NCBI GenBank assembly: GCA_964651255.1
Contig: CAZYWU010000001.1
Span: 131,890 to 195,889, forward strand
DNA: 64,000 nt
Source: an uncultured Anaerolineales bacterium
GTDB taxonomy: Bacteria > Chloroflexota > Anaerolineae > UBA1429
Direction: 5' to 3'
The position numbers were made by a program, and so were the translations under genes. Below the pieces are notes generated by a model. That model did no database searches, was not told where the DNA came from, and saw nothing but the letters and a program-made list of their open reading frames with translations. Below, piece after piece: positions 13,157 to 31,415 of this stretch (positions within the stretch are counted from its first letter, which is position 1; every line of letters begins with the position of its first letter).

Positions 13157-13196
13157 TATCGTCCCATCCTCGATCGATATCGTATTCACGCTGCGG

Positions 13197-16169
13197 CTAC
13201 TCGTTCAGCGTGACCCAGTCTGTGCTCCCACTGTATCCCACCAGCTTGATGCGCACCTTGGCGGCTGTGCCCGCTTCCGGCTCTGTGCCGGTCACAATCA
13301 GCACCTCGTAGGTGCGGACGGCGGGACTAAGTTCGCCGAGGCCCGGGATCGGCTCGAAGACAAAGCTGGGCGGCAGAATCCCGATGATGCCGCCGAGTGA
13401 AAAGGTTGGCGTGGGCCCGGTATACGGTGTGGGCGTCCTGGTAGGTACGGCGGTTCTTGTCGGTGTGGGTGTCGGCAATGCGGCGCACACCATCAGGCTG
13501 CCGTCGTCCTTGTCGGAAGCGATCCAGCGGTCAAACACAAAGGGGATATACCCCGAGTCGCCCGCCACCAGCACCCTGTCCACATACCAATCGGGGCTGT
13601 AGCCTGTGTTGTCGTGTTGCAGGCAGACCTCTTTGTACGTCCCCACAAACTCGCCCGGGATGACAAATCCCCTGGCCTCCGCCGGCCCGAACACCGGTGT
13701 GGGTGTGGGTGTTGTCGTGGGCGAAGGCTGTGGCGTCGGCGAGGGCATATTGGCGATCGCAGCGGCTGTGCCGGCCGCGTCGGCCGTTGCCTGCATGGCT
13801 GCCATGGCAGCCTGCTGTGTGGCTTCTGCCTGGGCCTCTGCGGTCTTGGCCTCGGCAGTGCTCTCAGCAGCGACCGTCTTGCCCTCTGCTGCGACTGTCT
13901 TGGCCTCGTCTGTGCTCGACATCATCATGGCTAGCGCCATCTGGGTCGCGGTTTCCTGTGCTACCTGTGTCTGCTGCCGTTCGCCTCGTGTCTCGGCCGT
14001 CTGGGTGGCATAGACGATCGCCTGGGCGACCGCCGTGGCCTCTGCGGCGCGTTCTTTCTGCCTGTTCGTGTAGGCAAGCCCGATGGCCGCGGCAACGATG
14101 ACCACAAGCGTGGTCAGGAGGGGGATAGCCCAGGTGGGCAGCCAGGGCTTGACCTGGAGAGATGCCTGCGTGGTGGCAATCTGCTCGCCGTTCGCAAGCG
14201 CGGTGATGGCGTAGCTGTGCGTCTCTGGGCTACCCATCAACGCGCGCTTGCCGCGCATGGCGATGGGCAGTGAGACGTCTTTGAGCGTGCCAGCAGGCAC
14301 CGCCACAGGGGAACTCGGTGCGGTCGGCGTCAGGACCTGGTCCGGATCCTCCACAGCTAGAATGATCGATTCGGTAGCGTTGCCCTGGTTGCTGACGGTC
14401 ACGCGTCCCCTGCCAGCGTTGGTGATCGTTCGCGGCGTGACAGAGAGCGAGAGATCGCGGAATGGCTCAACATTCAGGGTGCCGGTGGCAGCCACGCTCT
14501 GCGCGGGTTGTGACTGGGAATAGACCCGGATCGAGTAGGTATGCTCACCAGCGCTGCTGGCAGGGCTCCTGGGCGCTGTGATGCGAATTGTCATCGTGCC
14601 TGCGTCGCCGGGCGCAAGGCGCAGGGGATCCTGTGGCATGGCGACCCACTCGGCGGGGATGCCTTCAATCGAGGGCATGAGATGGTCCACCTGTTGCTGG
14701 CGGTTGAGCAGACGCACCGTGACCACAGCGGGGACGCCAGTGCGAATCCGCTGACTGGGAGGATCCAGTGTCACCTGAATCGGGTCTGCCGCGTCAGCGA
14801 TGGCGCGGGGCGCGTAGGTGGCGGCTCCCGCGGGCGGCTCCGCCGGGGCGTCTGCGCCTGACACGCCCTGAAGCTTGAGCCAGTGATTGCCTATCCGCAC
14901 ACTCTGGGCCGGTCGCCAGGGCTCTGAAACGCCTGGCAGCAGCCGGTTGTCTCCCACCCATGTCCCATTGGTCGAGTTCAGATCGGTGATCTGGAACTTG
15001 CCCTGAGCGATCGTGATCTGCGCGTGGTGGCGCGAGACCTGCGAGTCGGCCAGCGTAATGTCGTTGTCGGGGTCACGGCCGATGGTGATTCTGCGCCGTG
15101 AGCCCAGCGCGAAGGAGCGGGTGGTGCCATCTTCCTGCAGGATGATAATCTGGCCCCCGGGCGTGGCGCTCGAGGGTGGTGTCGGCCAGCGATCCTTCTC
15201 AGGCGGGGGCTGGGGTTGCTCTCTGGACACCATGGTCGCCAGGCTTGCTTTGGGAGCCGGGGTGCCGGCTGTCATCGTGTGCTCGGCCGGCCTGGCGAGC
15301 GAGACCCGCGCGGCGTCGAGCGCCGACCGCAGCTCCCCGGCGTTCTGGTAACGATCGCCGGGTGACTTGGCGAGTGCCTTGAGGATGATCTCCTCTACCT
15401 GGGATGGGATCTCTGGATCCACTGACCGGGGTGGGGGCGGGGGCTCCTTGGTGTGGGCACGGATCGCCTCGGTGAGCGTATGCACCTCAAAGGGCAAGCG
15501 ACCGGTAACCATCTCATAGAGCACGATCCCGAGGGCGTAGATATCGGCTCGCCCGTCGATGTCGCCGCCCTCGCACTGCTCGGGGGCCATGTAGGCCGGG
15601 GTGCCCATGCTGGTGCCCGGCATGCTCATGATGCCGCCCTCGGATAGTTTGGCCAGCCCAAAGTCGGTCAGCATCGGATGAAACCCCAGGCCGAACGGGT
15701 CCGTCTGCCCGGGTTCCAGCGGCCGCAGGATTACGTTTCCCGGTTTGATGTCGCGGTGGAACACGCCCCGCGCATGGGCATAGCCTAGAGCGTCCGAGAC
15801 CTGTTCAACGATGGCGAGTGACTCGGGGAGCGCTAGCACCATCCCTCGCTCACTCAGCAGGTGCAGCCAGTCCTGCAGGTTCTGGCCCGGGATAAAGGCC
15901 ATGACGATATAGAGCAGCGTCGGATCGCGCGAAAAGGCATAGATCTGTACGATGCCCGGATGATCGAGCGCAGCAATCGCGCGCGCCTCTTGCATAAACC
16001 GCTCACGAAATCCCTGCTGCTGGGCGATGTGGCTGTGCATCACCTTGATGGCGACGGCGCGGTTCAGTGCGACATCCTGTGCACGAAACACGGCGCCCAT
16101 GCCGCCCTGCCCCAGGAGCTTTTCTATGCGATAGGTATTGTCCAGGACTGTGCCTACAAGGCCTTCCAT
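13197..16169 (-). CDS. membrane Ser/Thr protein kinase with FHA domain, Ig-like repeats, one TM helix and a PLAT-like C-terminal ectodomain
   Basis: N-terminal Hanks kinase (GQGGMGAVF, HRDIKPGNV, DFGLA). FHA domain (GR...SRHHA...NGT). TM helix WAIPLLTTLVVIVAAAIGLAY. A/T/Q and P/T linkers. C-terminus with HDNTG...W and TG...AGT PLAT-like signatures. True start is the ATG at 16169 with a GGAGAG SD; the ORF beginning at 16337 is over-extended. Confidence 0.85.
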   Translation of the reverse strand: MEGLVGTVLDNTYRIEKLLGQGGMGAVFRAQDVALNRAVAIKVMHSHIAQQQGFRERFMQEARAIAALDHPGIVQIYAFSRDPTLLYIVMAFIPGQNLQDWLHLLSERGMVLALPESLAIVEQVSDALGYAHARGVFHRDIKPGNVILRPLEPGQTDPFGLGFHPMLTDFGLAKLSEGGIMSMPGTSMGTPAYMAPEQCEGGDIDGRADIYALGIVLYEMVTGRLPFEVHTLTEAIRAHTKEPPPPPRSVDPEIPSQVEEIILKALAKSPGDRYQNAGELRSALDAARVSLARPAEHTMTAGTPAPKASLATMVSREQPQPPPEKDRWPTPPSSATPGGQIIILQEDGTTRSFALGSRRRITIGRDPDNDITLADSQVSRHHAQITIAQGKFQITDLNSTNGTWVGDNRLLPGVSEPWRPAQSVRIGNHWLKLQGVSGADAPAEPPAGAATYAPRAIADAADPIQVTLDPPSQRIRTGVPAVVTVRLLNRQQQVDHLMPSIEGIPAEWVAMPQDPLRLAPGDAGTMTIRITAPRSPASSAGEHTYSIRVYSQSQPAQSVAATGTLNVEPFRDLSLSVTPRTITNAGRGRVTVSNQGNATESIILAVEDPDQVLTPTAPSSPVAVPAGTLKDVSLPIAMRGKRALMGSPETHSYAITALANGEQIATTQASLQVKPWLPTWAIPLLTTLVVIVAAAIGLAYTNRQKERAAEATAVAQAIVYATQTAETRGERQQTQVAQETATQMALAMMMSSTDEAKTVAAEGKTVAAESTAEAKTAEAQAEATQQAAMAAMQATADAAGTAAAIANMPSPTPQPSPTTTPTPTPVFGPAEARGFVIPGEFVGTYKEVCLQHDNTGYSPDWYVDRVLVAGDSGYIPFVFDRWIASDKDDGSLMVCAALPTPTPTRTAVPTRTPTPYTGPTPTFSLGGIIGILPPSFVFEPIPGLGELSPAVRTYEVLIVTGTEPEAGTAAKVRIKLVGYSGSTDWVTLNE

Positions 16170-16183
16170 GATCTTCTCTCCGC

Positions 16184-17182
16184 CTAGGTGATCTGGAGCG
16201 TGTAACTTGTGTGCGCCGGGCGATTTACATCGATGATGCGCTCGATGATCCGCCGGTCGATCTCTCGATCCCCGCTGACGATAATCACACGAAAGGTGTG
16301 CGGGCCGTCGACATTTTCCTCTATTCGAACCTCGCATCCCGTGGCGATGCGCAGATGGGTCGATAGCCCGTCAACGGTGCCTCTCGCCTGGTGCAGCCAG
16401 TTGGCTTTGAGCAGCAACTCTCGTTGTGTCTCCGGCGACCAGTGCTCGTCGACCAGATGGGCCATCCAGTCGTTGAGCCACGGCAGGAACGTCTCCGGTG
16501 CGGTATCTGGATTCAGGAACATGTCCCAGTGGGCAACGATCTGCTGGATTGGGCCGATCAGATCCTCAAAGACCAGCAGATAGCGCCCGATAAAGTCCGT
16601 TTGGGCGTATATCGGCGGAAGGTACTGCAGCCAGCGGCTTGCCCGCGATGGCATACCCACCCAGGGCTGAACAGGCGCCGGTCCCATCACGGTGATCGGG
16701 GCCTCTGGCGGCGGGCCAGCGGGGCTCTCCGGTGGTCGCCTGGAGGCGCGCCGGGTACCCAGCCGCTCCAGCATGGCCAGGTCCACGGGGGGCGACTCTA
16801 TTTCTTGCTCAGGCGGCACCTCTGCTTCTGGCGTTTCTTCGTGCGCTGTCATAGAGGGCTCTTCCGTCACAAGCTGCTCAAAGGTCAGGCGGAATGGCCC
16901 GATCGCGATCACATCGCCGGGCTTGAGGGGCCGCGGCTCGTTAGGGGCCAGGGGCAAGTCGTTCAGCTGCGTCCCGTTGCTGCTGCCGAGATCTTCGATC
17001 CGGTACGGTTCGCGATCGCCCAGGATCCTAGCATGAACCCGCGACACCCAGGCGTGAGCAAGAACCAGGCTGGCCTGGGTCGAGTCGCGGCCAATCAGGA
17101 CCAGCGGCTCCTCAATCGTATACTCTCTGGCCGGTTCGTCGGGTGACACGATCACCAGCCTGTAACGAGGTTGCTGAGTCAT
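16184..17182 (-). CDS. CIS baseplate wedge protein, P2 gpI-like (Afp12-type), with N-terminal FHA domain
   Basis: N-terminal FHA (LVLIGRDSTQASLVLAHAWVSRVHARI...SSNGTQLN), a Pro-rich linker, and a C-terminal Tail_P2_I-like domain (FLPWLNDWMAHLVDEHWS...). ATG at 17182, 10 nt after the baseplate-J stop. Confidence 0.75.
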   Translation of the reverse strand: MTQQPRYRLVIVSPDEPAREYTIEEPLVLIGRDSTQASLVLAHAWVSRVHARILGDREPYRIEDLGSSNGTQLNDLPLAPNEPRPLKPGDVIAIGPFRLTFEQLVTEEPSMTAHEETPEAEVPPEQEIESPPVDLAMLERLGTRRASRRPPESPAGPPPEAPITVMGPAPVQPWVGMPSRASRWLQYLPPIYAQTDFIGRYLLVFEDLIGPIQQIVAHWDMFLNPDTAPETFLPWLNDWMAHLVDEHWSPETQRELLLKANWLHQARGTVDGLSTHLRIATGCEVRIEENVDGPHTFRVIIVSGDREIDRRIIERIIDVNRPAHTSYTLQIT

Positions 17183-17192
17183 CTCGTCAGCC

Positions 17193-19178
17193 TCATTCCA
17201 CCATGATCTCGACCTGGTGAATATCGGAAACAACGACCTCGTGCGCCAGCAAGTCGATCTTGCGGTCCGCCTGGTGGGCACGATCCTCGTCGTCGATCCA
17301 ATACATGTCGATGTTCTGAACGTTGAGCAAGCCCTCTACCTTTTGGATACAGCTGTAGAGATCGGAAAGGTACAACTCGCGGCCGAAAGGCCATCCGGTG
17401 CCCGCCGGCCCGCCACGGAGCGGGTTCACGAACCGGTCCAGCGCTGAGCGGATGTCCGCACCCAGGCGCCGTTCATCGACCTCCGGTCGCGCTATGACCT
17501 GTGCGCTGATACGGATGCGCTTGTAGCCTGCAGCCTGTACCTCAAGCTGGGTCGTCAGCAGGCGGCGGGCGTTCAGAAACGCCGTGATCCGCTCCTGGAG
17601 GTCGGATGAAAGCGCCAGCCGGGGCAGGGGAATGTAGTGGGTGGCCTCCTCTTCAGGCAGGTTCGGAATCACGAGCACGTACACCTGGCCAGGGCCACTG
17701 CGGTCCGCTCCCATACCCGCAAAGGCCGTCTGGAGGCAACACACACGGGCAACCTCGCCCTTGAAGGCATCCAGGGTGAGGAACTCATAGTCCTCCGGCG
17801 TGACCGCGCGGTAACGCGATCGCAGCAGGTTGCGGGCCCGAAACATGGCCTGTTCGAGTGTCTCCTGATCCAAACCGCCCTGTGCTGCTGTGCGGTTTGA
17901 GGTGCGGTCGATGTAGGCCAGCGCCGCACGCGGCTCGGTGATCGAGGCTGCCCGCACATTGCCTGCCGTACCGCCGCCATAGCGGTAGCGCGAGAACCGG
18001 AGCTCAGCCCCGCGTGGCGGCAGGGCACCGTAGCGCAACACGGTACCGTCGCGCTGCCGGAGTGCGGGTCCAAAGCGTACCTCGCCGGTCGCGCTGTCCA
18101 GCGCGTAATGACGGTCCTGAGGGCCAGATTCGGCGAGGGTTTCAACCTCCTCCCATGGCTCCCATCCCTCCATGCCCGGCATCCAGATTTCGACGCGCTC
18201 ATCCGCGTGGCGCGGCAGGACGGGCGTGTGTTCCAGATGGAACACTTGGCCAGGAGACCCGTCGCTCCTGCCCAGCGCCTCATTGGCGATTTCTGTGGCA
18301 TGCGAGGCCATCACGGTCGCGCCCCAGGTCACCATTTCCAGACGCCGCAGAATGGGCGAGGTGGCGTAGGGGCGCTGATCTTCGCGCGGCGGCGTCACCT
18401 GACAGCGGATCCAGTAGGCTTCGATGCCATTGATCTCGGAGCGCGACATGACAGGCAGGTGCATCCGGACCTGTCCGGTAAAGCTCATACCGCCGGTCGA
18501 GTCCACCTCAACGTCCGTGTCGCGCCAGCCATTGGCGGTCCATGCCTGCCAGACGATGGGCGGCGATTCGGGGATGATATTCAGTCCCCCGGCCCGCACG
18601 GCAGCCATGTCCAACCCGATATAATGATGGTCCAGATTGACGTCGAACCCGACGTACAGCGCGTCGCCCTCGGCGGGGCGGTCCGGGCTGAATACGGAGA
18701 ACTCGCCGCTCAGCCGGGCCAGGGGCACCTCGTGATAGGCCATGCCGCCGTCGGCGCTGCGATAGCGCGTGACGATGTGCAGCAGCCGGGCGGGGCGGAT
18801 CTCCAGGCTCTCCTCGGTGGTAAAGACTACCGCCTCGCCGCCGGCTCGTGACGTGGCTGTGGCGGTGCCTCGCGGGACCGTGATGGTCTGCTGTTGTGGC
18901 GCGGAGAGGTAAAAGGTCACCGGCACAGAGGCAGCCTGCGGTGGCTCGAGTTGGATGCCCAGCAGGTTGAGCAGTTCGATATAGTGCCGCGCCGGCATCT
19001 GGTTGACCCGGTAGAGCAGGATATCGACCATCCATGCGAACAACTCAATCAGAGTGACGCCCGGGTCGCTGACGTTGTGGTCCGTCCATTCCGGACAATA
19101 CAGCGGGATGCGCCTCTTGGCCTCATCGACCAGGTCCTGAAAGGAGCGATCGTCGAGCGGCTGCGTGGGTAACGGCAT
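17193..19178 (-). CDS. CIS baseplate protein, phage baseplate J / gp6-like (Afp11-type)
   Basis: 661 aa with the N-terminal PLYCPEWTDHNVSDPGVTLIELFAWM motif of the baseplate-J family (TIGR02243-like). Confidence 0.85.
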   Translation of the reverse strand: MPLPTQPLDDRSFQDLVDEAKRRIPLYCPEWTDHNVSDPGVTLIELFAWMVDILLYRVNQMPARHYIELLNLLGIQLEPPQAASVPVTFYLSAPQQQTITVPRGTATATSRAGGEAVVFTTEESLEIRPARLLHIVTRYRSADGGMAYHEVPLARLSGEFSVFSPDRPAEGDALYVGFDVNLDHHYIGLDMAAVRAGGLNIIPESPPIVWQAWTANGWRDTDVEVDSTGGMSFTGQVRMHLPVMSRSEINGIEAYWIRCQVTPPREDQRPYATSPILRRLEMVTWGATVMASHATEIANEALGRSDGSPGQVFHLEHTPVLPRHADERVEIWMPGMEGWEPWEEVETLAESGPQDRHYALDSATGEVRFGPALRQRDGTVLRYGALPPRGAELRFSRYRYGGGTAGNVRAASITEPRAALAYIDRTSNRTAAQGGLDQETLEQAMFRARNLLRSRYRAVTPEDYEFLTLDAFKGEVARVCCLQTAFAGMGADRSGPGQVYVLVIPNLPEEEATHYIPLPRLALSSDLQERITAFLNARRLLTTQLEVQAAGYKRIRISAQVIARPEVDERRLGADIRSALDRFVNPLRGGPAGTGWPFGRELYLSDLYSCIQKVEGLLNVQNIDMYWIDDEDRAHQADRKIDLLAHEVVVSDIHQVEIMVE

Positions 19179-19185
19179 AGTAGCG

Positions 19186-19581
19186 CTACTCCTCGGGAAT
19201 CAGATAAAAGGGGTACACCAGGCTGCGGCTGGAATGGGTAGACCGGATTGTATACCTCACATTGATTAACATGCGGGCTGTATCCTCCGGGTCAGGGGAT
19301 GCGGTCACCTGCTCGACCTGGATTCGCGGTTCCCAGCGCCCCAGGGCCAGCCGCACAAAGCGCTCGGCCTGGGCGATGGTCTGTAGATTGTTGGGTGCAA
19401 AGACGATCTCATTCAGCCGGCAGCCGAACTCTGGGCGCATGACGCGCTGGCCGGGGGAGGTCATCAGGATGATGCGGATCGATTCCTCAATCTCCTGCTC
19501 CCCCGACACGGTGGCGATGCGACCGCGATGGTCCAGCCGCGGCGGAAAGGCCCAGCCTCTTCCGATGATATCGTCCGACAC
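19186..19581 (-). CDS. CIS baseplate wedge protein, gp25/GPW lysozyme-like (Afp9-type)
   Basis: 131 aa with the GRGWAFP...RPEFGC motif of GPW_gp25. Confidence 0.85.
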   Translation of the reverse strand: MSDDIIGRGWAFPPRLDHRGRIATVSGEQEIEESIRIILMTSPGQRVMRPEFGCRLNEIVFAPNNLQTIAQAERFVRLALGRWEPRIQVEQVTASPDPEDTARMLINVRYTIRSTHSSRSLVYPFYLIPEE

Positions 19582-19613
19582 GTGATGCTCCTTATCGCTG
19601 CTGAACGAAGGCG

Positions 19614-20018
19614 CTACCCTCCGGCCATGACCGTGCCCGTGGCGATCACGGTTCCGGCCGGGGCCGGGTTGATGTCATCGCAGGTCCGCGCGGAATCCCC
19701 GTTCCGCGCGACTCCCTGACCATTGACCAGCACCGTCGTGCTGCCCATCACAATGGTAGCCAGGTTGGTGGGCGGCACCTGAAAGCTTGGGCCCCCAATA
19801 GGTATGTGCGGCGGCTGGTTCACCGCCGTGCTATTGACCGTGGCGACCGGCATGCCCCCGATCATTACGTTGCTGCTGAGCCCTCCGTTGATCATGCCGT
19901 TGAATGGATGCCCGGGCGTTGGCGTTGGCACAGGACCGCCCGGCGAGGGCACCATCACGATGTGCGTATCCATCGCGGTGACCATGTCCCCCATTTTCGC
20001 GATCGGCTGTGCTGGCAT
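19614..20018 (-). CDS. PAAR-domain spike-tip protein (Afp10-type)
   Basis: 134 aa, Gly/Pro-rich with repeated xxGxP..G blocks and ARNGDS.C, typical of PAAR cones. Confidence 0.75.
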   Translation of the reverse strand: MPAQPIAKMGDMVTAMDTHIVMVPSPGGPVPTPTPGHPFNGMINGGLSSNVMIGGMPVATVNSTAVNQPPHIPIGGPSFQVPPTNLATIVMGSTTVLVNGQGVARNGDSARTCDDINPAPAGTVIATGTVMAGG

Positions 20019-20030
20019 GATGCTCGCCTG

Positions 20031-21731
20031 CTACGGGTTCAGCTGGATCATGGCACCCTTGATCGTCAGGTTGCCGCTGGCCTCTATTTCCATGTTCGCA
20101 CCAGCCTTGATGCTGACGTTCGTGCCCCCTTCGATCTCCAAGTCACCGTCGCCCTTGATCGTGATCTTTCGCCCATTATCGTCCAGAGATAGTACGGCGC
20201 CGCCCGAGGTCGTAATCTCCACCTTGCCATCATCGTCGTGCAGCACCAGGATGTGACCGCCGGCGGTCTCGATCTGGACAAAGGCCTCGTTTTCCTCCGC
20301 CAGAGTGATCTTGTGTCCCACTCGTGTGACCAGGGCGCGCTGGACGATACTCCCGTTGGCTACTGATGTAGCCCTGTCGATCGGGGTGGCATCCTGGCCG
20401 TTCCAGAGGCCGCCAATCACGACCGGGCGTTCGATGTCTCCCTGCTCAAAAGCCACCAGGACCTCGTCATTGACCTCGGGCAACCAGTAGATGCCACGAT
20501 CCGGACCGGCGCCCGTGCCGATGACGCGCGCCCAGGGGCTGCTCAGGTCCGGGTTCAGCCACGGGAACTTGACCGTGACGCGTCCCATCTCGTCGGGATC
20601 GTTGATATCGGTAACGATACCCGTCATCACTGGCCAGCTTGTACCGGGTCGTACGTCCCTGTCGAGCAGTCGCGCCAGCGTGTCGTCGCGGCGGCCGCGC
20701 ACGGTAAAGTACGTGACATAGTCGCGCTCTGTATTCCACACATGTCTGGCCGTGGTGACCCGATACGTGCCGCTGAACCGGTTCCCCAGCGCGGTGATGT
20801 TCGCCATCTTGCGGGCCTGCAACTCGGGCATGCCAAAGCACTCGCCTTCGGCCTCGACAAAGGCGCCGTCGTACTCGTCCAGTATGGCCTGTGCCAGTTC
20901 ATCCGCCTCGGCCTGGTCCGCGACACTGGTGGCGACAGTCAGCTCGCTGGCACTGCCAAAGACATTCTCTGCCAGGCTGCCGCCCGTGCCTTGCTCTCCG
21001 ATCGATGGCGCGGCCTCGCCCGATGTCGCCCGGCCCACGATCTCGTTTTTCGTGGAAGGGTCCCAGCCCCGCACCTGCACCTCACTGACCTGCTCGCCCA
21101 GGCTGAGGATGGGCCGGAAACTGCGCAGGTTCTCGCCCCACTCAAGATTGACAGTTTCGCCCTGTGCCGTGCCCGCCTTGAAGCAGAGGGTGCGACCCTC
21201 GACATAGACGTCATAGCCGATTCTGCGCGCTCGCTCGCGAAGAAACGCCATGTGGGTTTGGCCGTGCTGGAACACGTGCTTGTGCTCGGTCGATGTCGCC
21301 TCGACGTCCGCGCGCAGCTGCACCTGACTGGCGACATCGGACGCGATGGCGCTGTCGGTCATGTTGGTGTAGGTTCTGGTGATGGCACCGCGATGCAGGC
21401 GATGCGACCGGTCGTAGGCGCGCACCACCAGATCGGCGACTGTGCCCTCGCGAAAGTCAGGCTCGATCCCGGTGATCTCACCGTCAAAGAGCGCGGTCTC
21501 CCCGCGGCCCTGTTCATCAGCGACGCCCACTTCGAGGCTGGCCCCCAGGTCAAAGGGCCCGTTGTTGATCAGCTCGGCCCCCGTGTCGTGCACGTTCAGC
21601 ACACACATTGCCGGGAGCGTCAGGCTGCTCTCGACCTCGACCCGGTAGAGCTCGTCCATGACGGCGGTCTGGAGCGAGGTCCCGTTGATTTTGACATAGA
21701 GTTGTCGACTCAGGGCTGCATCGCGGCTCAC
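20031..21731 (-). CDS. VgrG-like central spike (gp27/gp5 fusion, phage late-control-D-like; Afp8-type)
   Basis: 566 aa with a gpD/VgrG N-terminal region and a C-terminal beta-helix repeat (GGAVLSLDDNGRKITIKGDGDLEIEGGTNVSIKAGANMEIEASGNLTIKG). Confidence 0.9.
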   Translation of the reverse strand: MSRDAALSRQLYVKINGTSLQTAVMDELYRVEVESSLTLPAMCVLNVHDTGAELINNGPFDLGASLEVGVADEQGRGETALFDGEITGIEPDFREGTVADLVVRAYDRSHRLHRGAITRTYTNMTDSAIASDVASQVQLRADVEATSTEHKHVFQHGQTHMAFLRERARRIGYDVYVEGRTLCFKAGTAQGETVNLEWGENLRSFRPILSLGEQVSEVQVRGWDPSTKNEIVGRATSGEAAPSIGEQGTGGSLAENVFGSASELTVATSVADQAEADELAQAILDEYDGAFVEAEGECFGMPELQARKMANITALGNRFSGTYRVTTARHVWNTERDYVTYFTVRGRRDDTLARLLDRDVRPGTSWPVMTGIVTDINDPDEMGRVTVKFPWLNPDLSSPWARVIGTGAGPDRGIYWLPEVNDEVLVAFEQGDIERPVVIGGLWNGQDATPIDRATSVANGSIVQRALVTRVGHKITLAEENEAFVQIETAGGHILVLHDDDGKVEITTSGGAVLSLDDNGRKITIKGDGDLEIEGGTNVSIKAGANMEIEASGNLTIKGAMIQLNP

Positions 21732-21747
21732 ATTGATAACCTCGCTG

Positions 21748-22407
21748 CTATTCCATCGGCGGGATGATGATCAGCCGTCCGGTGCGCAGGTGCAAAGGAT
21801 CGTCTATCCCGTTGGCCTGGGCGATCTGTCGCCACTTGGTGCTGTCTCCGTACGCGTCATAGGCGATGAGATCGAGCCGGTCGCCCGCATCGAGCATGCG
21901 TGTGGTCGGGGCGATCCCGCCCCCGGACGTGGGGTTCTGCCCCAGAATGTCAAAGGCATCGCTCACCTGCTGCAGGCTGATCTGGATCGTGCTGCGCACC
22001 GCGGTACCGGAGGGCAGAAACAGGCCGATCTGCTCGCTCATCTGCGTGATGACCGCCTCAAAGGAAAAGGCGCCCCAGATAAACATGCAATGGGGCGGTT
22101 CACTCTTGCCCGTGCGCGGGTCCGTGCGCGCGTCGTCTACCATCATCATGTTCCAGAGATGCGCTGTCAGAGAGCGGACATCCTGGCCCGCGTCCAGTGT
22201 GTCAAAGAGCAAGCGCAATGTCAGAGTCTGAGCGCCGCCCTGCTGGAACCGGATGTGCGGGATGTTCTTGCCTTTGGTATCTGCCTGCTCGTAAGAGTTA
22301 GTCTTGGCGATGGTGTACTCGTACGGGTTGAACATGCAGGGCACAGACTCCCCCGTGTTCTTGTTCACGAGCACTGCGGGCGCCAGACCTCCTCGTGTTG
22401 TCGGCAT
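21748..22407 (-). CDS. CIS tube-initiator / LysM-domain protein (Afp7 / P2 gpX-U-like)
   Basis: N-terminal PCMFNPYEYTI motif and a C-terminal LysM (DRLDLIAYDAYGDSTKWRQIAQANGIDDP). Confidence 0.85.
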   Translation of the reverse strand: MPTTRGGLAPAVLVNKNTGESVPCMFNPYEYTIAKTNSYEQADTKGKNIPHIRFQQGGAQTLTLRLLFDTLDAGQDVRSLTAHLWNMMMVDDARTDPRTGKSEPPHCMFIWGAFSFEAVITQMSEQIGLFLPSGTAVRSTIQISLQQVSDAFDILGQNPTSGGGIAPTTRMLDAGDRLDLIAYDAYGDSTKWRQIAQANGIDDPLHLRTGRLIIIPPME

Positions 22408-22421
22408 CTCTACGTTTCTCC

Positions 22422-24503
22422 TTAGCGCAGGCGCGAGCCACCCATGCGCTCACGCTCCACACGCAAACGATCTCTCAGCTTGCTGAACACACGTTCCGCC
22501 AGTTCTTCGATATCCGGAGCCCGTTCCGCTTGCGGAGACTCTTCAGATTCTGCCGGGGCAGTCTCCGTAGAGGAATCTGCGCGGGTTGTATCCGCGGGCG
22601 CCTCGGCGCGCCGGATAGGCGGGCCCGGCGAGTCCCCTCGATCTCGTGTAACGCGAGTTGGTGCAGCCATGGATGCGACCACCTGATCGATAGGCAGTAC
22701 CTGCCTCGGAAGTGGGTGGGGAGCGCCGGGCGTCAACCTCTGTTGCTCAGCCGTAGCCAGTTGGGCAGGGGTGCGGTCCGGGAAACCGGTCTGCCTGCGC
22801 ACAGGCGGATGTTGCGATGTCGGCGTCACGGCGGACAAGGCAGATCCTCCTGCTGAGGCTGGCGGCGTCTGGGCCGGCGGTACCTCCTGTACCCATTGCG
22901 CCGACTCGCGCGGTGACCGCGGCTGGATCGGAGGCGCGCTGGAGGGCGGGAGCTGTGCTATAGCTGGCTCAGGCCAGGGCGGTATCGTCTCAGGCTCGGT
23001 GCTCGCCTCAGTCGCAAAGCGCTGCAACTGCGCCCGGTAAGCCTCGGCCAGATCCAAGCTCGCAGGGACGCTCTGCACAGGAGCATGTTCCGAACCGGGT
23101 GCCCGCCGTTGTTCGGCCGCTGCGGTGACGGCTGGTGCCTGCACATCGGGACTGCGCCTCACAACCGGCTTTACTGGAGGCGCGTCGGGTTCGACCGCGG
23201 GCTCAAACGATGGTGCCTCCGGTCTGGTCAATGCGCCTTCTGGTGTCTCTGGGAGCGCCGCGGCAGCGGCCCGGATATGGTGTAAAGCATCTCTCTGTTC
23301 TACCCGCGCTGGCGACGGCTCGATGGCGTCAGACTGCAGCGTAACGGCTGGCGCGGGCGCCATGGGCATCTCGGGAATGGGCTCGCTATCGCTTGGCACA
23401 GGCTGCGTATCCGCCGGTCGTGCCACCTGCTCGCGCGTCGCCTCAGGCGTGGCGGTGGGGCCGGCGGGAGCAGATCTCTCTTCAGGTGCACGGTAGACCG
23501 CCTGTGCCCGGGAGATCGCCTCGGACTCGCGCCGCAGCGGTTGCGCGGAGCTAGATGCGTCCGAGGGGCCCGCCGTTCCAGTCTCCGCCGGCGGCGGCGT
23601 CTCGGCCGTCGTGTCCGCAAGATCAGTCGCGGGCCTTACTGGCACGCCTGGCGTCCCAGTATCGAAATCCGGCACAGCCGTCTCGCGCCTCACGGTCTGG
23701 GAAGTCGTTGGACCCTGCCCCTGGGGCGATACGGTTGCCTCTGTCGTCGAAACCGTGCTCTGCGTTTCCGCGGTACGCCGGATCAGTGGCGCTGCGAGCT
23801 GAGAGGTCGGCCTGTCCGCTGTGCCCTCGGCACGGGCTGGCCCTCGTGCCGCCTGTGTTCGGACCGTGTCCGTTGGCGTGCCCGCTTGTTGTGCCGGAGG
23901 CTGTTCATAGAGCTGCGAGACGGGTTTGGGCCGCGCCCCGGGCGCGGGAGGCGTGGCAGATGCCGTTGCGGAGGGCCGCGCGCCTCCTCGTGCCTGCCCA
24001 GCGGCCTGCGTACCTGGTGAGGCCTGGCTTGATGCCGGCGACCGGGGCCGCTGGAGCGCTCGCCGTACCTCTTCCACGGTAAAGCCGGGCCGTGGTGGGG
24101 CCAGAGGTTCCGAAGCTGGCTCTGCGTCCGGTGAGAGGGGACCCCCATCTCTCGCGCCCAGGGCGGACACCGCGCCCGTGAATCCTGACTGGTGGCCACG
24201 ACCGCGCTCAAGTATCTCTACTTCCGGAGTCATGAGCGCCAGCGCAGGGGATTGAGATGGTTCTGTGGCCGGTGCAGAGGCGGGCCTGGCCGGCTCGATG
24301 GTGCGCTCGATGACCGGTGACACGCGCGCCGGCGTTGGCTCGGCAATGCTCTGCACGACTGGATGCCTTGTCAGCGTCATGGGGGTATATCGCGTGGCCT
24401 GCCGCTGCAGAGGCCCGGGTTCCGGCTCCGGTATGATGTACCGGCGCTTGATATGCCGGGCGAAAGCCACGCTGACAAGTCGCAGGCCGTTCCCGTCTGT
24501 CAT
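22422..24503 (-). CDS. proline/alanine/threonine-rich low-complexity protein in the tape-measure (Afp14) position
   Basis: 693 aa. Position between tube 2 and the LysM protein matches the P2-like tube–tape-measure–U/X order. ATG overlaps the tube-2 stop (ATGA). Only the short N- and C-termini look non-repetitive. Confidence 0.5.
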   Translation of the reverse strand: MTDGNGLRLVSVAFARHIKRRYIIPEPEPGPLQRQATRYTPMTLTRHPVVQSIAEPTPARVSPVIERTIEPARPASAPATEPSQSPALALMTPEVEILERGRGHQSGFTGAVSALGARDGGPLSPDAEPASEPLAPPRPGFTVEEVRRALQRPRSPASSQASPGTQAAGQARGGARPSATASATPPAPGARPKPVSQLYEQPPAQQAGTPTDTVRTQAARGPARAEGTADRPTSQLAAPLIRRTAETQSTVSTTEATVSPQGQGPTTSQTVRRETAVPDFDTGTPGVPVRPATDLADTTAETPPPAETGTAGPSDASSSAQPLRRESEAISRAQAVYRAPEERSAPAGPTATPEATREQVARPADTQPVPSDSEPIPEMPMAPAPAVTLQSDAIEPSPARVEQRDALHHIRAAAAALPETPEGALTRPEAPSFEPAVEPDAPPVKPVVRRSPDVQAPAVTAAAEQRRAPGSEHAPVQSVPASLDLAEAYRAQLQRFATEASTEPETIPPWPEPAIAQLPPSSAPPIQPRSPRESAQWVQEVPPAQTPPASAGGSALSAVTPTSQHPPVRRQTGFPDRTPAQLATAEQQRLTPGAPHPLPRQVLPIDQVVASMAAPTRVTRDRGDSPGPPIRRAEAPADTTRADSSTETAPAESEESPQAERAPDIEELAERVFSKLRDRLRVERERMGGSRLR

Positions 24504-24931
24504 GACACCGTCACCATCTCGTAGGCCAGTTCCAGAGATTCTATCGCGATCGCGGAACTGCCCGCACTGAGCTCGGGCCCGCTCCACTTGGTGGGAAAGG
24601 CCATGTGAAAGTCCCAGCGGATAACTGGCTCACCGGCGTCGTCCAACAGCGTCACCGACACCTGCTTACGGGCCGCCATCAGCTGGCCCTGAATCACCTG
24701 GGTGTACCAGGCCATCAGGTCGCTGCCGGTGGCCACGCCTCGTTTGAGCGTCAGCGTGCCTCGGCGAACGCGCCCGGGCAGAGGGTGCGATCCCACGTTA
24801 TAGCCGCCCTCTTTCTGCTCCTGGATCTCTACCTCCAGTGCCGGGAGGGTGCATTCGGTGAATGTCGCTCCCGGAAGACCGTCGATCTGGACGCTAAAGC
24901 GATAGGCGGGATGGGCATCCGGACGTTCCAT
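24500..24931 (-). CDS. CIS inner tube protein, paralog 2 (Afp5/T4 gp19-like)
   Basis: 143 aa with YRFSVQIDGL...FTECT..., homologous to the tube protein at 25459-25902. Confidence 0.85.
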   Translation of the reverse strand: MERPDAHPAYRFSVQIDGLPGATFTECTLPALEVEIQEQKEGGYNVGSHPLPGRVRRGTLTLKRGVATGSDLMAWYTQVIQGQLMAARKQVSVTLLDDAGEPVIRWDFHMAFPTKWSGPELSAGSSAIAIESLELAYEMVTVS

Positions 24932-25089
24932 CAGGTCCCGACCTCATTGGTGTGAATTCTGTCGACCTCGCGCACCCATCGCCGGCGCTCGGGATGTTCG
25001 AGTGACAGGATGTCGTCCCGTGACCAGTGCAAGTAATAGGCCAGGTACGCTACCTCCTCGAGCATCCGGTCGAGGGGGTAGCGCGTCAT
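24931..25089 (-). CDS. 52-aa conserved-looking microprotein, translationally coupled between the 119-aa ORF and tube 2
   Basis: The internal ATG at 25089 overlaps the stop of the upstream ORF (ATGA). Its own stop overlaps the tube-2 ATG (TGATG). The longer 69-aa ORF in the track would overlap the upstream gene by 55 nt. Confidence 0.4.
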   Translation of the reverse strand: MTRYPLDRMLEEVAYLAYYLHWSRDDILSLEHPERRRWVREVDRIHTNEVGT

Positions 25090-25445
25090 TCCCCCAGTGG
25101 CACGATCTCCTGTCGAAAGACCGTATGACAGTTCGGGCATTCCACCTCGATCGTATCGGCGCCGGTCTCGTTGATACGCCTGTAAAAGTCTTGCAGGTAG
25201 GCCATATCTGCGGCGAACAGGTTTTCGATGACATGAGGGGTCACCTGGTCCAGACTGCCCAGGCGAGTGACGACGCGCGACAGCAGCAGTATCGCCAGGT
25301 AAGCCTCGTTAGATCGCACGCGCATGTCCCGGAGCGGGGCGATCTCATCCATTGCCGTGGCCAGCCTCATCACGCCCTGGCGATGGACCCGCCCCTCTCC
25401 GTCGACGTACCCGCGCGGAAGCTCGAAGGGGAACTCTGTCTGCAT
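25086..25445 (-). CDS. 119-aa CIS-associated hypothetical protein (Afp6-position) with C-terminal CPNC zinc-ribbon-like motif
   Basis: Located between the two tube genes. GGAGG SD 5 nt before the ATG. No confident family assignment. Confidence 0.55.
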   Translation of the reverse strand: MQTEFPFELPRGYVDGEGRVHRQGVMRLATAMDEIAPLRDMRVRSNEAYLAILLLSRVVTRLGSLDQVTPHVIENLFAADMAYLQDFYRRINETGADTIEVECPNCHTVFRQEIVPLGE

Positions 25446-25458
25446 AAGGGCCTCCGGT

Positions 25459-25902
25459 CTAGCTTACGCGGAATAGGCCCTCATGGGTGATCACGAGCTC
25501 CTCGACCCCCAGCTCATTGCTATCCGCCTTGATGGACGGACCGGACACCTTGACTGGCCAGGCTTTCTCAAAGTTCCAGCGGGCCACCTCGTTCAGGCCC
25601 TGGTCGAACATGATGATCGATCCCTCACGGCGGGCCTCGTCGACCTTGCCCTGAACGACCAACTCACGCCAGTCCCAGATGTCCATGTTGTCGGTGATAC
25701 CGCGCTTGAGCGTGATGTTCTCCCATTTGAGCCGGCCGGGGATTTTGAGCACATGCTCTCGCCCGGCTTCATCGACGACCTTGTGCTCGATCACCTCGTT
25801 CTCGGAGCCGATGCCGGAGCACTCGGTAAAGTACCCGGTGACCTCGCCCGCAACATCAATCGCATAGTGAAAACCAACAAGCGGATCTTTTCGGTCCGTC
25901 AT
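25459..25902 (-). CDS. CIS inner tube protein, paralog 1 (Afp1/T4 gp19-like)
   Basis: 147 aa, FHYAIDVAGEVTGYFTECSG...LKRG, the classic eCIS/T6SS-Hcp-like tube signature. Confidence 0.9.
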   Translation of the reverse strand: MTDRKDPLVGFHYAIDVAGEVTGYFTECSGIGSENEVIEHKVVDEAGREHVLKIPGRLKWENITLKRGITDNMDIWDWRELVVQGKVDEARREGSIIMFDQGLNEVARWNFEKAWPVKVSGPSIKADSNELGVEELVITHEGLFRVS

Positions 25903-25938
25903 GGATCGCTCTCCTTGCTCTACTTAGCTGGGCTGGCG

Positions 25939-27504
25939 CTAGGCCGCGGCGGGCCCCGCCCACTGGCTGATACGGAAGATCACAAACTCCGCCGGCTTGA
26001 CCGGGCAGATGCCGATCTCGATGATCAACTGGCCCAGGTCGCGCACTTCGACCGGATTCAGTTCCTCATCGCACTTTACATAAAACGCCTCATTGGGGGT
26101 TGTGCCAAAGAGTGCGCCGGATGTCCACACTGTACGCAGGAAGGCCGTCACATCGCGCCTGACGCGCGCCCAGAGGTCCGGGTCGTTAGGCTCAAAGACG
26201 ACCCACTGTGTGCCGCGCTCGATGGATTCCTCCACCATGTTAAAGAGGCGACGCACATTGATGTATCGCCACGCCGGATCGCTGCTCAGCGTGCGGGCGC
26301 CCCAGATGCGGATTCCGCGGCCGGGGAAGGCACGGATGCAGTTCACCCCGATGGGGTTCAGCGCATCCTGCTCGCCTCGGGTGAGCTGAACCGGAAGGCC
26401 AGTGGCGCCGCGGATCACCTCGTTGGCCGGGGCCTTGTGCACCCCGCGCTCGGCATCGCTGCGCGCATAGACACCCGCAATGTGGCCAGAAGGCGGAATG
26501 CGGATGCTCCCCTTACCCTTGACCATATCTGCGGTCTCGATCCAGGGATAGTACAGCGCAGCGTACTTGGTATCATAGTTGCTGGACTGGCGCCACTGCA
26601 GCATCGCCTGAGGACTGAGATCGGGCGGGCAGTCCAGAATAGCAAAGCTGTACTTGCTCTGCTCGCAGTGCTCGTACAGCGCCTGCTGTACCGCCTGGAC
26701 ATCCTGCAGCGACATCTCGCCAGACTGGAAGCTCTGCATCAGGTCCGGCACCGCCACCATCGTGACCTCGTCTACGGGCGTGAGGCCACCCAGCCCGGTG
26801 CGTTCTGCCACTTCGCCCCGATAGGCCGCCACGGTGAGCGCTTTGGTCTCGATCTTGCCGCCCTGCAGGGTATACTCGCCGGCGCGCGGTCTGCGCTCCG
26901 CCAGTGTGCCCTTGCTTTGCTGCACCTGCACCGTGATGAACCGAGACCGCGTATTGACCACCGTCTCGACATTCTGATCGCCCTTGCCCAGAGTTAGATC
27001 CTGAAAGGTCTCTGTACCGCCGGGAGCTGAGATGATCAGCGTAAAGGTCTCGGCGGCCGGGTCCTCAGGCTCGCGCACTGTGACCTTGATCTCGTTGCCG
27101 CTCGGGCCGCCAGACCTGGCCTTGATCTGAAGCGTGTCGCCGCCGCCTTCCGCGCGCGCCGGTAGTGCCGCGACAGCCGGCGTGGCCAGCCGTTCGTCCA
27201 CAGAGGCGCCCAGTGCCTTGACAGAGACTACGTAGCAGCGACTACCCCCGTTCGCAAAGTAACCATAGACCGAATAGGGCAGGTAGGCCCCCTCGACAAA
27301 CCCACCGAATTTGTCGGTGTACTGGGTCCAGTTGGTGATGGCCACGGGGCGATTCTGGAGCGAGGTCACCTCGCCATTGCTGACTTCCTCAGCCTTTTCG
27401 GTAAAGCCGATAAAGGCTGCGACAGCCGTGCCCACGGCCTCGATGGGCCGGGTTCCGCCCTCACGTTCTTCGATGTAAACACCAGGTGACAGATAAGTTG
27501 GCAT
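25939..27504 (-). CDS. contractile sheath protein (Afp2-4 / phage tail sheath family)
   Basis: Starts MPTYLSPGVYIEE (the ATG at 27504 is preceded by AGGA). 521 aa. Only one sheath gene is present in the locus. Confidence 0.9.
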   Translation of the reverse strand: MPTYLSPGVYIEEREGGTRPIEAVGTAVAAFIGFTEKAEEVSNGEVTSLQNRPVAITNWTQYTDKFGGFVEGAYLPYSVYGYFANGGSRCYVVSVKALGASVDERLATPAVAALPARAEGGGDTLQIKARSGGPSGNEIKVTVREPEDPAAETFTLIISAPGGTETFQDLTLGKGDQNVETVVNTRSRFITVQVQQSKGTLAERRPRAGEYTLQGGKIETKALTVAAYRGEVAERTGLGGLTPVDEVTMVAVPDLMQSFQSGEMSLQDVQAVQQALYEHCEQSKYSFAILDCPPDLSPQAMLQWRQSSNYDTKYAALYYPWIETADMVKGKGSIRIPPSGHIAGVYARSDAERGVHKAPANEVIRGATGLPVQLTRGEQDALNPIGVNCIRAFPGRGIRIWGARTLSSDPAWRYINVRRLFNMVEESIERGTQWVVFEPNDPDLWARVRRDVTAFLRTVWTSGALFGTTPNEAFYVKCDEELNPVEVRDLGQLIIEIGICPVKPAEFVIFRISQWAGPAAA

Positions 27505-27605
27505 CTCTCTATCCTTTGACTGATAGCAGGCCGGGGACATGACCGGCGTGCGACGAGGTCCACTGGTCCGGAGCTATAGAGCGATACCCTCCTTTCTTGT
27601 GGTGG

Positions 27606-28436
27606 CTATATCTCGAGGTCGTATGATTCCAGGCTTTGCGGCGGCACGGGCACGCGGTGCGTCGCCTCGCGGCCATCCGCCTGCACTCGGAGCCGGTATT
27701 CTCCGCCCGATAGCCCACCAAAGCGATAGCGTCCAAAGTGGTCGGTGAGGCAAGTCTGCCCCGTCTCTATCACGCTAACTGTGGCCCTGGGTACAGCAGG
27801 GCCACCCCTGGCCTGAAAAACGATGCCCGCGATCTCAAAGGTCGTCGACCGCGTAGCTTCGGCAGCATTGCGGTCAAGAACATCCACGCGCCGAGAGATG
27901 ACCCACGGGCTCGTAAAGGCCACGGCACGCTCCATGGCCAACGTGACTGTATAGTTGATCGAGGGCCTGAGCTGGTTCTCCATGACGCCCCAGAGATCGG
28001 GCAGGTTCTCGATGGCGCGCGAAGGCTGAGCGGTTCGCGCGTGCACCGGATAGGGCTGATTGCGCAGGCCGGGCTCAAGGATTTCCGTGTCCAGCGTCGG
28101 CGTGCCAGCCAGCGCACCAAGCACGCGCCACAGTATCGCGTGTTCATCCTCCACCTGATTCTGCGTCCAGACGGTGACCAGGTACGAGAGATCGTAGCGC
28201 AGAGGCGCCAGCCGCTTGCTGACCTGGCCTTCAGAATCACGCTCGACGATCCACTCTTGTGAACGAAGCTCCGTATTCTCCCGTATGTCGTACAGGTAAA
28301 AGTTGATCGTCGGGCGCGTCAGTCCAGCAGCCCAGTCGCCGGTGGGCTGGTCAAAGCTCACCGTGACACTGTCCGTGTCAAAGTTGCCGTGCTTTAGCAC
28401 CAGATTCCGGATGGTCTCGTCGAGCTGATTGATCAT
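27606..28436 (-). CDS. CIS tail terminator/cap, DUF4255 (Afp16/Pvc16-like) with carboxypeptidase-regulatory-like C-terminal domain
   Basis: N-terminal LTRPTINFYLYDI DUF4255 signature. C-terminal GIVFQARGG...GRYRFGGLSGGEYRLRV beta-sandwich. Confidence 0.8.
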   Translation of the reverse strand: MINQLDETIRNLVLKHGNFDTDSVTVSFDQPTGDWAAGLTRPTINFYLYDIRENTELRSQEWIVERDSEGQVSKRLAPLRYDLSYLVTVWTQNQVEDEHAILWRVLGALAGTPTLDTEILEPGLRNQPYPVHARTAQPSRAIENLPDLWGVMENQLRPSINYTVTLAMERAVAFTSPWVISRRVDVLDRNAAEATRSTTFEIAGIVFQARGGPAVPRATVSVIETGQTCLTDHFGRYRFGGLSGGEYRLRVQADGREATHRVPVPPQSLESYDLEI

Positions 28437-28505
28437 CCCCTGCCTCGAATTAGCTCTAGCACCTGACTAGCCTGCAATGACGCGCCGAGGTGTTACCCTT
28501 CTGGG

Positions 28506-31386: not shown

Positions 31387-31415
31387 ATCATAGCGCATGG
31401 TCAACTGGGTGTCAA
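31387..31415 (-). promoter_or_regulatory. near-consensus sigma70 promoter (TTGACA-17-TATGAT) driving the CIS operon
   Basis: On the minus strand, TTGACA at 31415-31410 and TATGAT at 31392-31387, exactly 17 bp apart, about 72 bp upstream of the ATPase ATG (31315). Confidence 0.6.

Follow-up and report, generated by a model that had tools for sequence, protein, structure and literature searches.

The window analysed here, a stretch of 64,000 nucleotides (nt) from an uncultured Anaerolineales bacterium (contig CAZYWU010000001.1, positions 131,890 to 195,889), codes for a complete contractile injection system (CIS) whose operon ends with the gene of a 990-residue receptor-type Hanks Ser/Thr kinase. 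The kinase protein is probably a dedicated membrane adaptor and sensor of a machine related to the Streptomyces CIS (CIS-Sc). Together with the FHA domain fused to the baseplate wedge protein gpI, a homolog of Cis12, its kinase and FHA domains would form a phosphothreonine-dependent docking or trigger switch. The evidence lies in the architecture of the protein, the orthology of the machine, the conserved linkage of their genes, the co-occurrence of FHA and kinase, and the intact catalytic and phosphothreonine-binding residues of both partners.

Architecture of the kinase protein and its FHA partner

The kinase gene is found in the minus strand. Its ATG at position 16169 is preceded by a GGAGAGAAG ribosome-binding site and lies 14 nt after the TAG stop codon of the gpI gene, which agrees with the preliminary description of this DNA that had placed the kinase directly behind an FHA-gpI gene on the same strand. 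A longer open reading frame (ORF; 1046 aa, start at 16337) was rejected because it overlaps the gpI gene and homologous proteins begin at the ATG of position 16169. The modules formerly proposed for the protein (kinase, FHA, two immunoglobulin (Ig)-like domains, one transmembrane (TM) helix, a stalk and a PLAT-like end) were all recovered by Pfam, AlphaFold2 and hydropathy (Table 1), the PLAT domain proving to be permuted. The AlphaFold2 model, built on 40 homologs with a mean predicted local distance difference test score (pLDDT) of 75, displays the kinase, the FHA domain, two confident Ig sandwiches, a long helix, a disordered segment and a carboxyl terminus beta-sandwich. A Foldseek search with the full-length model returned kinases only and carries no information on the Ig or PLAT parts. 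The Ig-Ig region has no significant match in the PDB by phmmer.

The kinase domain scores 154.6 bits (Pfam cut-off 31.7) and its catalytic set is intact and conserved among homologs: K42 of the VAIK motif, E61, HRD at residues 138–140 and DFG at 169–171. As judged from this full catalytic core, the protein is a Hanks-type (PknB-like) Ser/Thr kinase, whose closest solved structures are those of Mycobacterium tuberculosis PknA and PknB (E 1e-51).

The FHA domains of gpI and of the kinase protein score 64.6 and 62.7 bits against a Pfam cut-off of 20.7. The residues expected to contact phosphothreonine are invariant among 21 sequences in gpI (G31, R32, S47, R48, H50 and N69) and invariant or nearly so in the kinase protein (G364, R365, S379, R380, H382 and N401). 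Both domains thus carry the Gly-Arg, Ser-x-x-His and Asn signature predicted to bind phosphothreonine. The earlier proposal of an FHA reader built into the baseplate itself is borne out by the composition of gpI, an FHA domain joined to Tail_P2_I; the protein is also above the cut-off for NCBIfam TIGR02242 and TIGR01634. The linker that separates the kinase from its own FHA domain is variable, apart from S309 and T312 of the S-L-A-T motif, which stand beside a W-P-T-P-P motif (40 sequences). The VSLxT pattern is kept in the distant CIS-linked kinases P0051 and P0098 and is missing from the unlinked paralog P0064. The S-L-A-T motif is a candidate phospho-acceptor or FHA-docking site.

The cytoplasmic part is followed in all CIS-linked homologs by one TM helix located between residues 670 and 790, in most of them between 670 and 745. 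The ectodomain of the window protein is a PLAT/LH2 domain, recognized by its fit to the PLAT profile and by its eight-stranded beta-sandwich. The match of residues 825–891 reaches 38.7 bits for a cut-off of 23. Its order is circularly permuted, with the C-terminal two-thirds in front, an insert in the middle and the N-terminal strands as the last 41 residues of the protein. The permutation is deduced from re-ordering the sequence in silico, which yields a single full-length match (profile positions 1–112 of 117) of 54.6 bits, higher than the 43.8 bits of the native order. The insert of about 50 residues is P/T-rich and hydrophobic (FSLGGIIGILPPSFVF). Two Cys of the ectodomain are invariant and the permuted order is kept in the 16 PLAT-type homologs aligned (A4).

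The ectodomain differs from lineage to lineage. Permuted PLAT is found in the close clade and TSP3 calcium-binding repeats, which replace or lengthen the stalk, in many other relatives. P0035–P0037 have a DUF1080-type domain (PF06439), and the Thermogemmatispora kinase has an ectodomain that was not assigned to any of these types. Architecture and TM position are constant among the CIS-linked homologs, in which the ectodomain alone varies.

Relation of the machine to characterised contractile systems

The operon is transcribed in the following order: a AAA+ ATPase of the Afp15 type (29192..31315), eCIS_core (DUF4157), the Pvc16 cap, sheath, tube, two small ORFs, another tube protein, a 721-aa Pro-rich protein, CIS_tube-LysM, a VgrG-like spike, PAAR, gp25, Baseplate_J (Cis11/gpJ), the FHA and Tail_P2_I protein gpI, and the kinase, which closes a 14-gene CIS operon whose genes are a few bases to a few tens of bases apart. 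By Pfam this is a complete CIS gene set, in line with the phage-tail-like CIS that had been noticed next to the kinase. The sheath protein aligns over its full length with the Streptomyces CIS sheath (8bky/9gtp; E 1.7e-160), the Baseplate_J protein with Cis11 (9gtp_1K; E 2.5e-141) and the C-terminal domain of gpI with Cis12 (9gtp_E, 190 aa, without FHA; E 1e-12). No tail-fibre gene was found, all ORFs of the 13197–31315 region being accounted for without a fibre-like Pfam match. Based on the orthologous sheath, Cis11 and Cis12 proteins and on the absence of fibres, the system is classified as a close relative of the Streptomyces-type, tail-fibre-less CIS.

Entry 9GTP corresponds to the extended model of CIS-Sc by Casu et al. 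2025 (PMC12237407). CIS-Sc particles are cytoplasmic, have no tail fibres and need for contraction the bitopic membrane protein CisA, whose gene lies just downstream of the baseplate genes. CisA is described with an unstructured N-terminus, cytoplasmic and predicted to bind Cis11, and with a solute-binding-like C-terminal domain on the outer side that was proposed to be a sensor (PMC12237407). The system in the window, known from its genes alone, shares with CIS-Sc the homologous structural genes, the lack of tail fibres and a filamentous host. Since the cytoplasmic Streptomyces CIS is the closest relative of the machine, CisA is the best analog of the kinase protein, which has an equal operon position and a bitopic topology; the comparison is one of position, topology and published description, not of sequence. 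The two systems differ in that the kinase protein has a kinase, an FHA domain and a pair of Ig domains on the inner side and a permuted PLAT domain on the outer side. Streptomyces Cis12 has no FHA domain, and no phosphorylation is known in CIS-Sc.

That the machine is instead a classical extracellular CIS (eCIS), with the kinase as its cargo or effector or as a surface receptor or immunity factor of the producer cell, is very improbable. Toxins are coded at the 3' ends of eCIS loci (Geller et al.), and the eCIS_core gene and the Afp15-type ATPase are both present here. However, a 990-aa bitopic kinase-FHA membrane protein is implausible as tube cargo, the absence of tail-fibre genes and the cytoplasmic nature of the nearest characterised machine do not fit an extracellular particle, and neither does the conservation of architecture and TM position with variation of the ectodomain alone. 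The operon also differs from the Afp/PVC systems in having no Afp13-like fibre gene and a sheath whose similarity to theirs covers only the C-terminal part. The thylakoid-anchored CIS (tCIS) of Anabaena is alike in being intracellular, attached to a membrane through its baseplate and found in a multicellular bacterium. It differs in that it is anchored by extensions of its own baseplate proteins, without involvement of a kinase or FHA domain, and that sheath similarity is much lower (E 6e-56) and limited to the C-terminal part.

Threonine phosphorylation in type VI secretion systems (T6SS) involves TagE/PpkA, TagG/PppA and TagH/Fha1, and phosphorylated TssL with Fha in Agrobacterium (PMC13584744). 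The resemblance to the PpkA-Fha1 switch put forward in the preliminary description stands at the functional level: in both cases a membrane Hanks kinase coded in the locus is accompanied by a phosphothreonine-reading FHA protein, which promotes assembly or firing at a membrane site in T6SS and would do so here. Membership of the T6SS pathway was rejected. The CIS of the window is of phage-sheath type (a single Phage_sheath_1) with Pvc16 cap, eCIS_core and Afp15-type ATPase, and no Tss family (TssB/C, TssJLM) or ClpV was detected in the cluster. The two FHA domains score 41.8 and 39.7 bits with the TagH/Fha1 family (NCBIfam VI_FHA, TIGR03354), far below its cut-off of 120.25, and no PP2C phosphatase gene is linked. 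The FHA domain is fused to a structural wedge protein, whereas TagH of T6SS is a separate protein, and the kinase protein itself contains an FHA domain, Ig domains and a PLAT ectodomain. The periplasmic vWA domain of PpkA was not detected in the kinase protein.

FHA partners of mycobacterial kinases (GarA, FhaA, FhaB/FipA) dock on the autophosphorylated kinase. Besides PknA and PknB being its nearest solved relatives, the kinase has in common with them the single-pass receptor-kinase topology, and the co-crystal of PknB with its FHA substrate GarA (6i2p) is among its structural neighbours. On the other hand, it has no PASTA domains, all its NCBIfam equivalog scores are below cut-off, and the partner FHA domain is in the baseplate of a contractile machine and not in a regulator of metabolism or cell division. 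The kinase and gpI would work like the PpkA-Fha/TssL and PknB-type kinase/FHA pairs but outside the T6SS pathway, because the TagH, PP2C and Tss components are not found.

Conservation of the kinase-baseplate linkage

Orthologs with 66%, 56% and 49% identity to the kinase are each coded directly after FHA-gpI. Their loci share the LarC/LarB genes that flank the kinase in the window, so this adjacency could result from synteny alone. A scan with the FHA-gpI alignment, restricted to one genome per species, gave 32 gpI loci that were each analysed by local tblastn. FHA is present on gpI in 31 of them. Enough downstream sequence is available for 29 FHA-gpI loci, and in 25 of these a Hanks kinase-FHA-Ig(-TM) gene is the next one in the same strand, usually after 17–63 bp. 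The linkage is found without the Lar flank in the cultured Thermogemmatispora aurantia A1-2 (L028), in Ca. Flexifilum breve (L026) and in groundwater Chloroflexi (L030–33, L037), where gpI is just 30–40% identical. Gene order is rearranged in other loci. The kinase-FHA-Ig-TM protein P0051 is coded at the 5' end of the CIS cluster in L086 (10001–17452), followed by a BTAD/TPR regulator and the AAA+ ATPase. In L087 (6493–9904) the membrane kinase P0098 is separated from FHA-gpI by a stand-alone kinase of 281 aa and by an FHA-Ig-TM protein of 836 aa that has a PD40/Tricorn beta-propeller. A 966-aa kinase follows FHA-gpI in L090, and in a Myxococcota-binned metagenome-assembled genome (MAG) the ORF after FHA-gpI starts with a kinase N-lobe. 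At the domain level, an exhaustive search of 1.84 billion representatives detected FHA in 101–103 of the 150 clusters nearest to gpI, which makes the fusion a common one in this lineage; the named FHA-gpI clusters among these belong to Anaerolineae/Anaerolineales, with one Myxococcota-binned MAG. A homolog search with the C-terminal domain of gpI alone returned 2 proteins.

An explanation by pure synteny was rejected on the grounds that the adjacency is found in loci without the LarB/LarC flank and with a rearranged gene order. An absence of conserved adjacency in related genomes, which the preliminary description had named as a reason to abandon its proposal, is not what is seen; linkage extends far beyond local synteny, as it survives loss of the flank, rearrangement and deep divergence. 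It is hence hardly credible that a general signalling kinase of Chloroflexota stands beside the CIS only by inherited gene order. Such an origin would fit the LarC/LarB/LarE genes downstream in close relatives and the large kinase family of Chloroflexota, which includes the unlinked P0064, but it accounts neither for this persistence nor for the near-perfect association of the kinase with FHA on gpI.

Note that giant two-kinase proteins with up to four FHA domains occur in Flexifilum-type loci (L026, 11782–16946; L029, 8815–13974; L027, 5104–10920), separated from FHA-gpI by eCIS_core; in L026 and L029 the kinase genes are followed, a few kb downstream, by weak PP2C-like matches. Loci L018, L022 and L024 form a sub-clade, and in L024 gpI is followed by two unknown ORFs and eCIS_core.

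The association with FHA was assessed further in a metagenome scan seeded with FHA-less gpI (alignment A8), which gave 66 loci. No kinase gene is directly downstream of gpI in the 31 informative FHA-less loci (one lies 5.9 kb away); 12 of them have a kinase-less Ig-Ig protein and 18 have neither. The four informative loci with FHA-bearing gpI have a kinase directly downstream in three cases (+12 to +39 bp), Ig-Ig alone in none and neither in one. When all loci are pooled, a kinase is adjacent to FHA-positive gpI in 31/36 loci versus 0/33 for FHA-negative gpI (Fisher p = 1.4e-14, a value computed on loci that are not phylogenetically independent).

Many FHA-less loci code for kinase-less Ig-Ig-TM proteins that are homologous to the corresponding part of the kinase protein. 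The 189-aa FHA-less gpI of L092 (8593–16570) is followed by four tandem paralogs that start with a kinase-type Ig-Ig module (blastp E 7e-18 to 2e-11 with the Ig pair of the kinase); in three of them the module continues into TM segments and C-terminal parts that vary, and the fourth is cut off by the end of the locus. The same Ig-Ig pattern is found in L107 (7559–13219) after a DUF4159 gene. Because such Ig-Ig(-TM) proteins follow FHA-less gpI, the combination of Ig-Ig, TM helix and ectodomain appears to be the older accessory of this CIS lineage. Other N-terminal fusions of gpI, a PASTA and a response-regulator receiver domain (one each, in P0197 and one A5 member), were also observed, so that signalling inputs into the baseplate protein may be diverse.

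The 14-nt gap between gpI and kinase genes has no promoter- or terminator-like signal of the kind that the preliminary description had considered able to isolate the kinase, and a strong hairpin is found only after the kinase stop codon. As total counts in the promoter and terminator scan were no higher than in shuffled sequence, this means only that there is no obvious signal between the two genes. The hairpin, placed between the convergent kinase and LarC genes and overlapping the LarC stop codon, likely marks the end of the operon and may be a bidirectional terminator. The LarE-like, LarB (AIRC) and short LarC C-terminal (Ni_insertion) genes (11111–13156, plus strand) converge on the kinase gene and form a flank that is syntenic in closer relatives only. 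Beyond this region the window consists of housekeeping chromosome with, among others, gyrB, gatB and the genes of ATP synthase, and the nearest genome record is an uncultured Anaerolineales MAG (L006; 92–98% identity). Within the operon, the 721-aa protein, which is rich in Pro, Ala and Thr (22422–24587, minus strand), occupies the position of the tape measure and has no Pfam or NCBIfam match; its true start is probably downstream, since the annotated GTG overlaps the preceding tube gene.

Table 1. Position of the kinase gene, its coding regions and associated elements in the window
Feature	Coordinates	Strand	Basis
Receptor-type Hanks Ser/Thr kinase, 990 aa, final gene of the CIS operon	13197..16169	minus	ORF, Pfam, AlphaFold2, orthologs
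Kinase domain, residues 13–275	15345..16133	minus	Pfam Pkinase, E 4e-45
Linker motif S309-L-A-T312	15234..15245	minus	Invariant columns in the 40-homolog alignment A3
FHA domain of the kinase protein, residues 340–434	14868..15152	minus	Pfam (361–416), E 1e-17; AlphaFold2 pLDDT 82–91
Two cytoplasmic Ig-like domains, residues 464–567 and 573–673	14151..14780	minus	FixG_C match (484–560); AlphaFold2
Single TM helix, residues 681–699	14073..14129	minus	Hydropathy scan; AlphaFold2 helix 681–719
Disordered A/T/Q- and P/T-rich extracytoplasmic stalk, residues 704–821	13707..14060	minus	AlphaFold2 pLDDT <50
Circularly permuted PLAT/LH2 beta-sandwich, residues 825–897 and 950–990	13200..13697	minus	Pfam; in silico re-permutation; AlphaFold2
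gpI/Cis12-homologous baseplate wedge protein with N-terminal FHA	16184..17182	minus	FHA 16877..17182; Tail_P2_I 16187..16630 (Pfam)
Remaining CIS operon genes	17193..31315	minus	Pfam
Promoter-like site upstream of the first CIS gene	31387..31415	minus	11/12 consensus positions; consensus match alone
Hairpin with perfect 15-bp stem after the kinase stop codon	13136..13169	minus	-40.1 kcal/mol, z = -4.3; without U-tract

A predicted phosphothreonine switch and its alternatives

The ancestral unit would be a protein with two cytoplasmic Ig domains, a TM helix and an outer domain that varies. Its gene would directly follow those of the baseplate, at the place taken by tail-fibre genes in classical eCIS and by the CisA gene in Streptomyces. 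In a large sub-lineage this adaptor would have gained an N-terminal Hanks kinase and an FHA domain, and the baseplate protein gpI/Cis12 an FHA domain. A cue from the envelope or from a lipid, sensed by the ectodomain with its permuted PLAT fold, would promote dimerisation of the kinase and its autophosphorylation on the activation loop and/or on the invariant S-L-x-T linker motif. The FHA domains of the six baseplate wedges would then bind the phosphothreonine, possibly in a reciprocal manner with the FHA domain of the kinase. As a consequence, the free cytoplasmic CIS would be docked baseplate-first at the membrane and licensed to fire. The outcome may be self-lysis or cell death, which is the case in Streptomyces, or else an attack directed at a neighbour.

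A number of observations weigh against this switch. The positive charges of the NRQKER segment directly after the TM helix contradict the positive-inside rule for an N-in topology. P0064 has the same cytoplasmic architecture and is not linked to a CIS. The FHA-gpI loci L018, L022, L024 and L153 have no adjacent kinase within the available sequence, and neither does a fifth one, L023, for which the downstream sequence extends for 1.9 kb only. In L030–32 and L037 the kinases (~11300–14060) have HRD changed to HQS/HES and no S-L-x-T motif; they are, for this reason, probably pseudokinases that keep the FHA-Ig-TM part. The membrane-proximal kinase of the double-kinase protein of L027 has HRQ. The persistence of these HQS/HES and HRQ variants implies that catalysis is dispensable in some lineages. 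The cognate PP2C phosphatase whose search had been suggested in the preliminary description was not found in the window by tblastn with approximate PrpC and PstP queries. These did detect PP2C genes in unrelated loci; near CIS clusters they gave only the weak matches in L026 and L029. The co-occurrence of FHA and kinase may reflect one ancestral event instead of many independent ones. The phosphorylation event, the binding partners, the kind of cue and the result of firing are all inferred.

The phosphothreonine switch has two main rivals, a scaffold that acts independently of phosphorylation and a regulator with no part in anchoring the particle. That the kinase is a chance neighbour or an effector is unlikely. 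In the first case the Ig-Ig-TM part would tether the CIS, with kinase and FHA serving as interaction modules that need neither catalysis nor phosphate. The kinase-less Ig-Ig-TM homologs found at the same position in FHA-less loci, the pseudokinase variants among CIS-linked copies and the lack of a nearby phosphatase all fit such a scaffold. Yet the double-kinase proteins retain one intact kinase, and it is hard to explain without phospho-signalling why all catalytic residues, and in both FHA domains all those that bind phosphothreonine, are conserved in the window protein and the majority of orthologs. A scaffold-only role is for this reason considered quite unlikely.

As a regulator without anchoring function, the kinase would sense a signal from the envelope and phosphorylate CIS proteins (gpI in its linker, the AAA+ ATPase or factors of sheath assembly) and so control assembly or disassembly, its FHA domains and that of gpI recruiting substrates for a particle that never docks. 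There is a T6SS precedent in PpkA, which promotes assembly via Fha1, a BTAD regulator adjoins the kinase in L086, and gpI has a long linker of disordered sequence with many P, E and T residues. This linker, though, has no conserved Thr in the gpI alignment, and the position of the gene is that of tail fibres and of CisA. The cytoplasmic Ig-Ig-TM core common to kinase-less proteins and the presence of FHA on a peripheral wedge protein, in six copies per baseplate, are also at odds with a purely regulatory role, which seems unlikely although not negligible.

Membrane docking or triggering through phosphothreonine thus remains the preferred function. Taken to its full extent, in which the window represents a sub-lineage of Streptomyces-type CIS, mostly from filamentous Chloroflexota, with a built-in phosphothreonine latch whose kinase autophosphorylates on a cue and whose wedge FHA domains clamp it to dock and fire the CIS, the proposal is put forward as tentative, its chance being somewhat short of even. 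No literature linking FHA or Ser/Thr kinases to a CIS other than T6SS was found among 8 million full texts, a collection whose partial coverage of subscription papers means that absence is not proof, and neither FHA nor Chloroflexi is mentioned in the principal eCIS surveys. This suggests that a CIS-Sc-like system with a hard-wired threonine-phosphorylation module is, apparently, undescribed.

The findings bear on how the fibre-less cytoplasmic CIS of multicellular monoderms reach the membrane and time their firing. CisA is required in Streptomyces, where its partner and signal are not known (PMC12237407). In the system described here the coupling can be read from recognisable domains, namely a receptor kinase, the S-L-x-T motif and an FHA reader on the wedge protein, so that the docking or trigger step is directly testable, and Thermogemmatispora aurantia is a cultured carrier of the module. 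The Ig-Ig-TM family emerges as a membrane accessory that recurs within the CIS lineage, and the variation of its ectodomains recalls the swapping of receptor-binding domains in tail fibres. Control of contractile machines by threonine phosphorylation would not be limited to the T6SS of Gram-negative bacteria. If the proposal is true, the phosphothreonine latch would be a convergent, structurally hard-wired counterpart of T6SS threonine phosphorylation and, for intracellular CIS, the first trigger mechanism to be defined.

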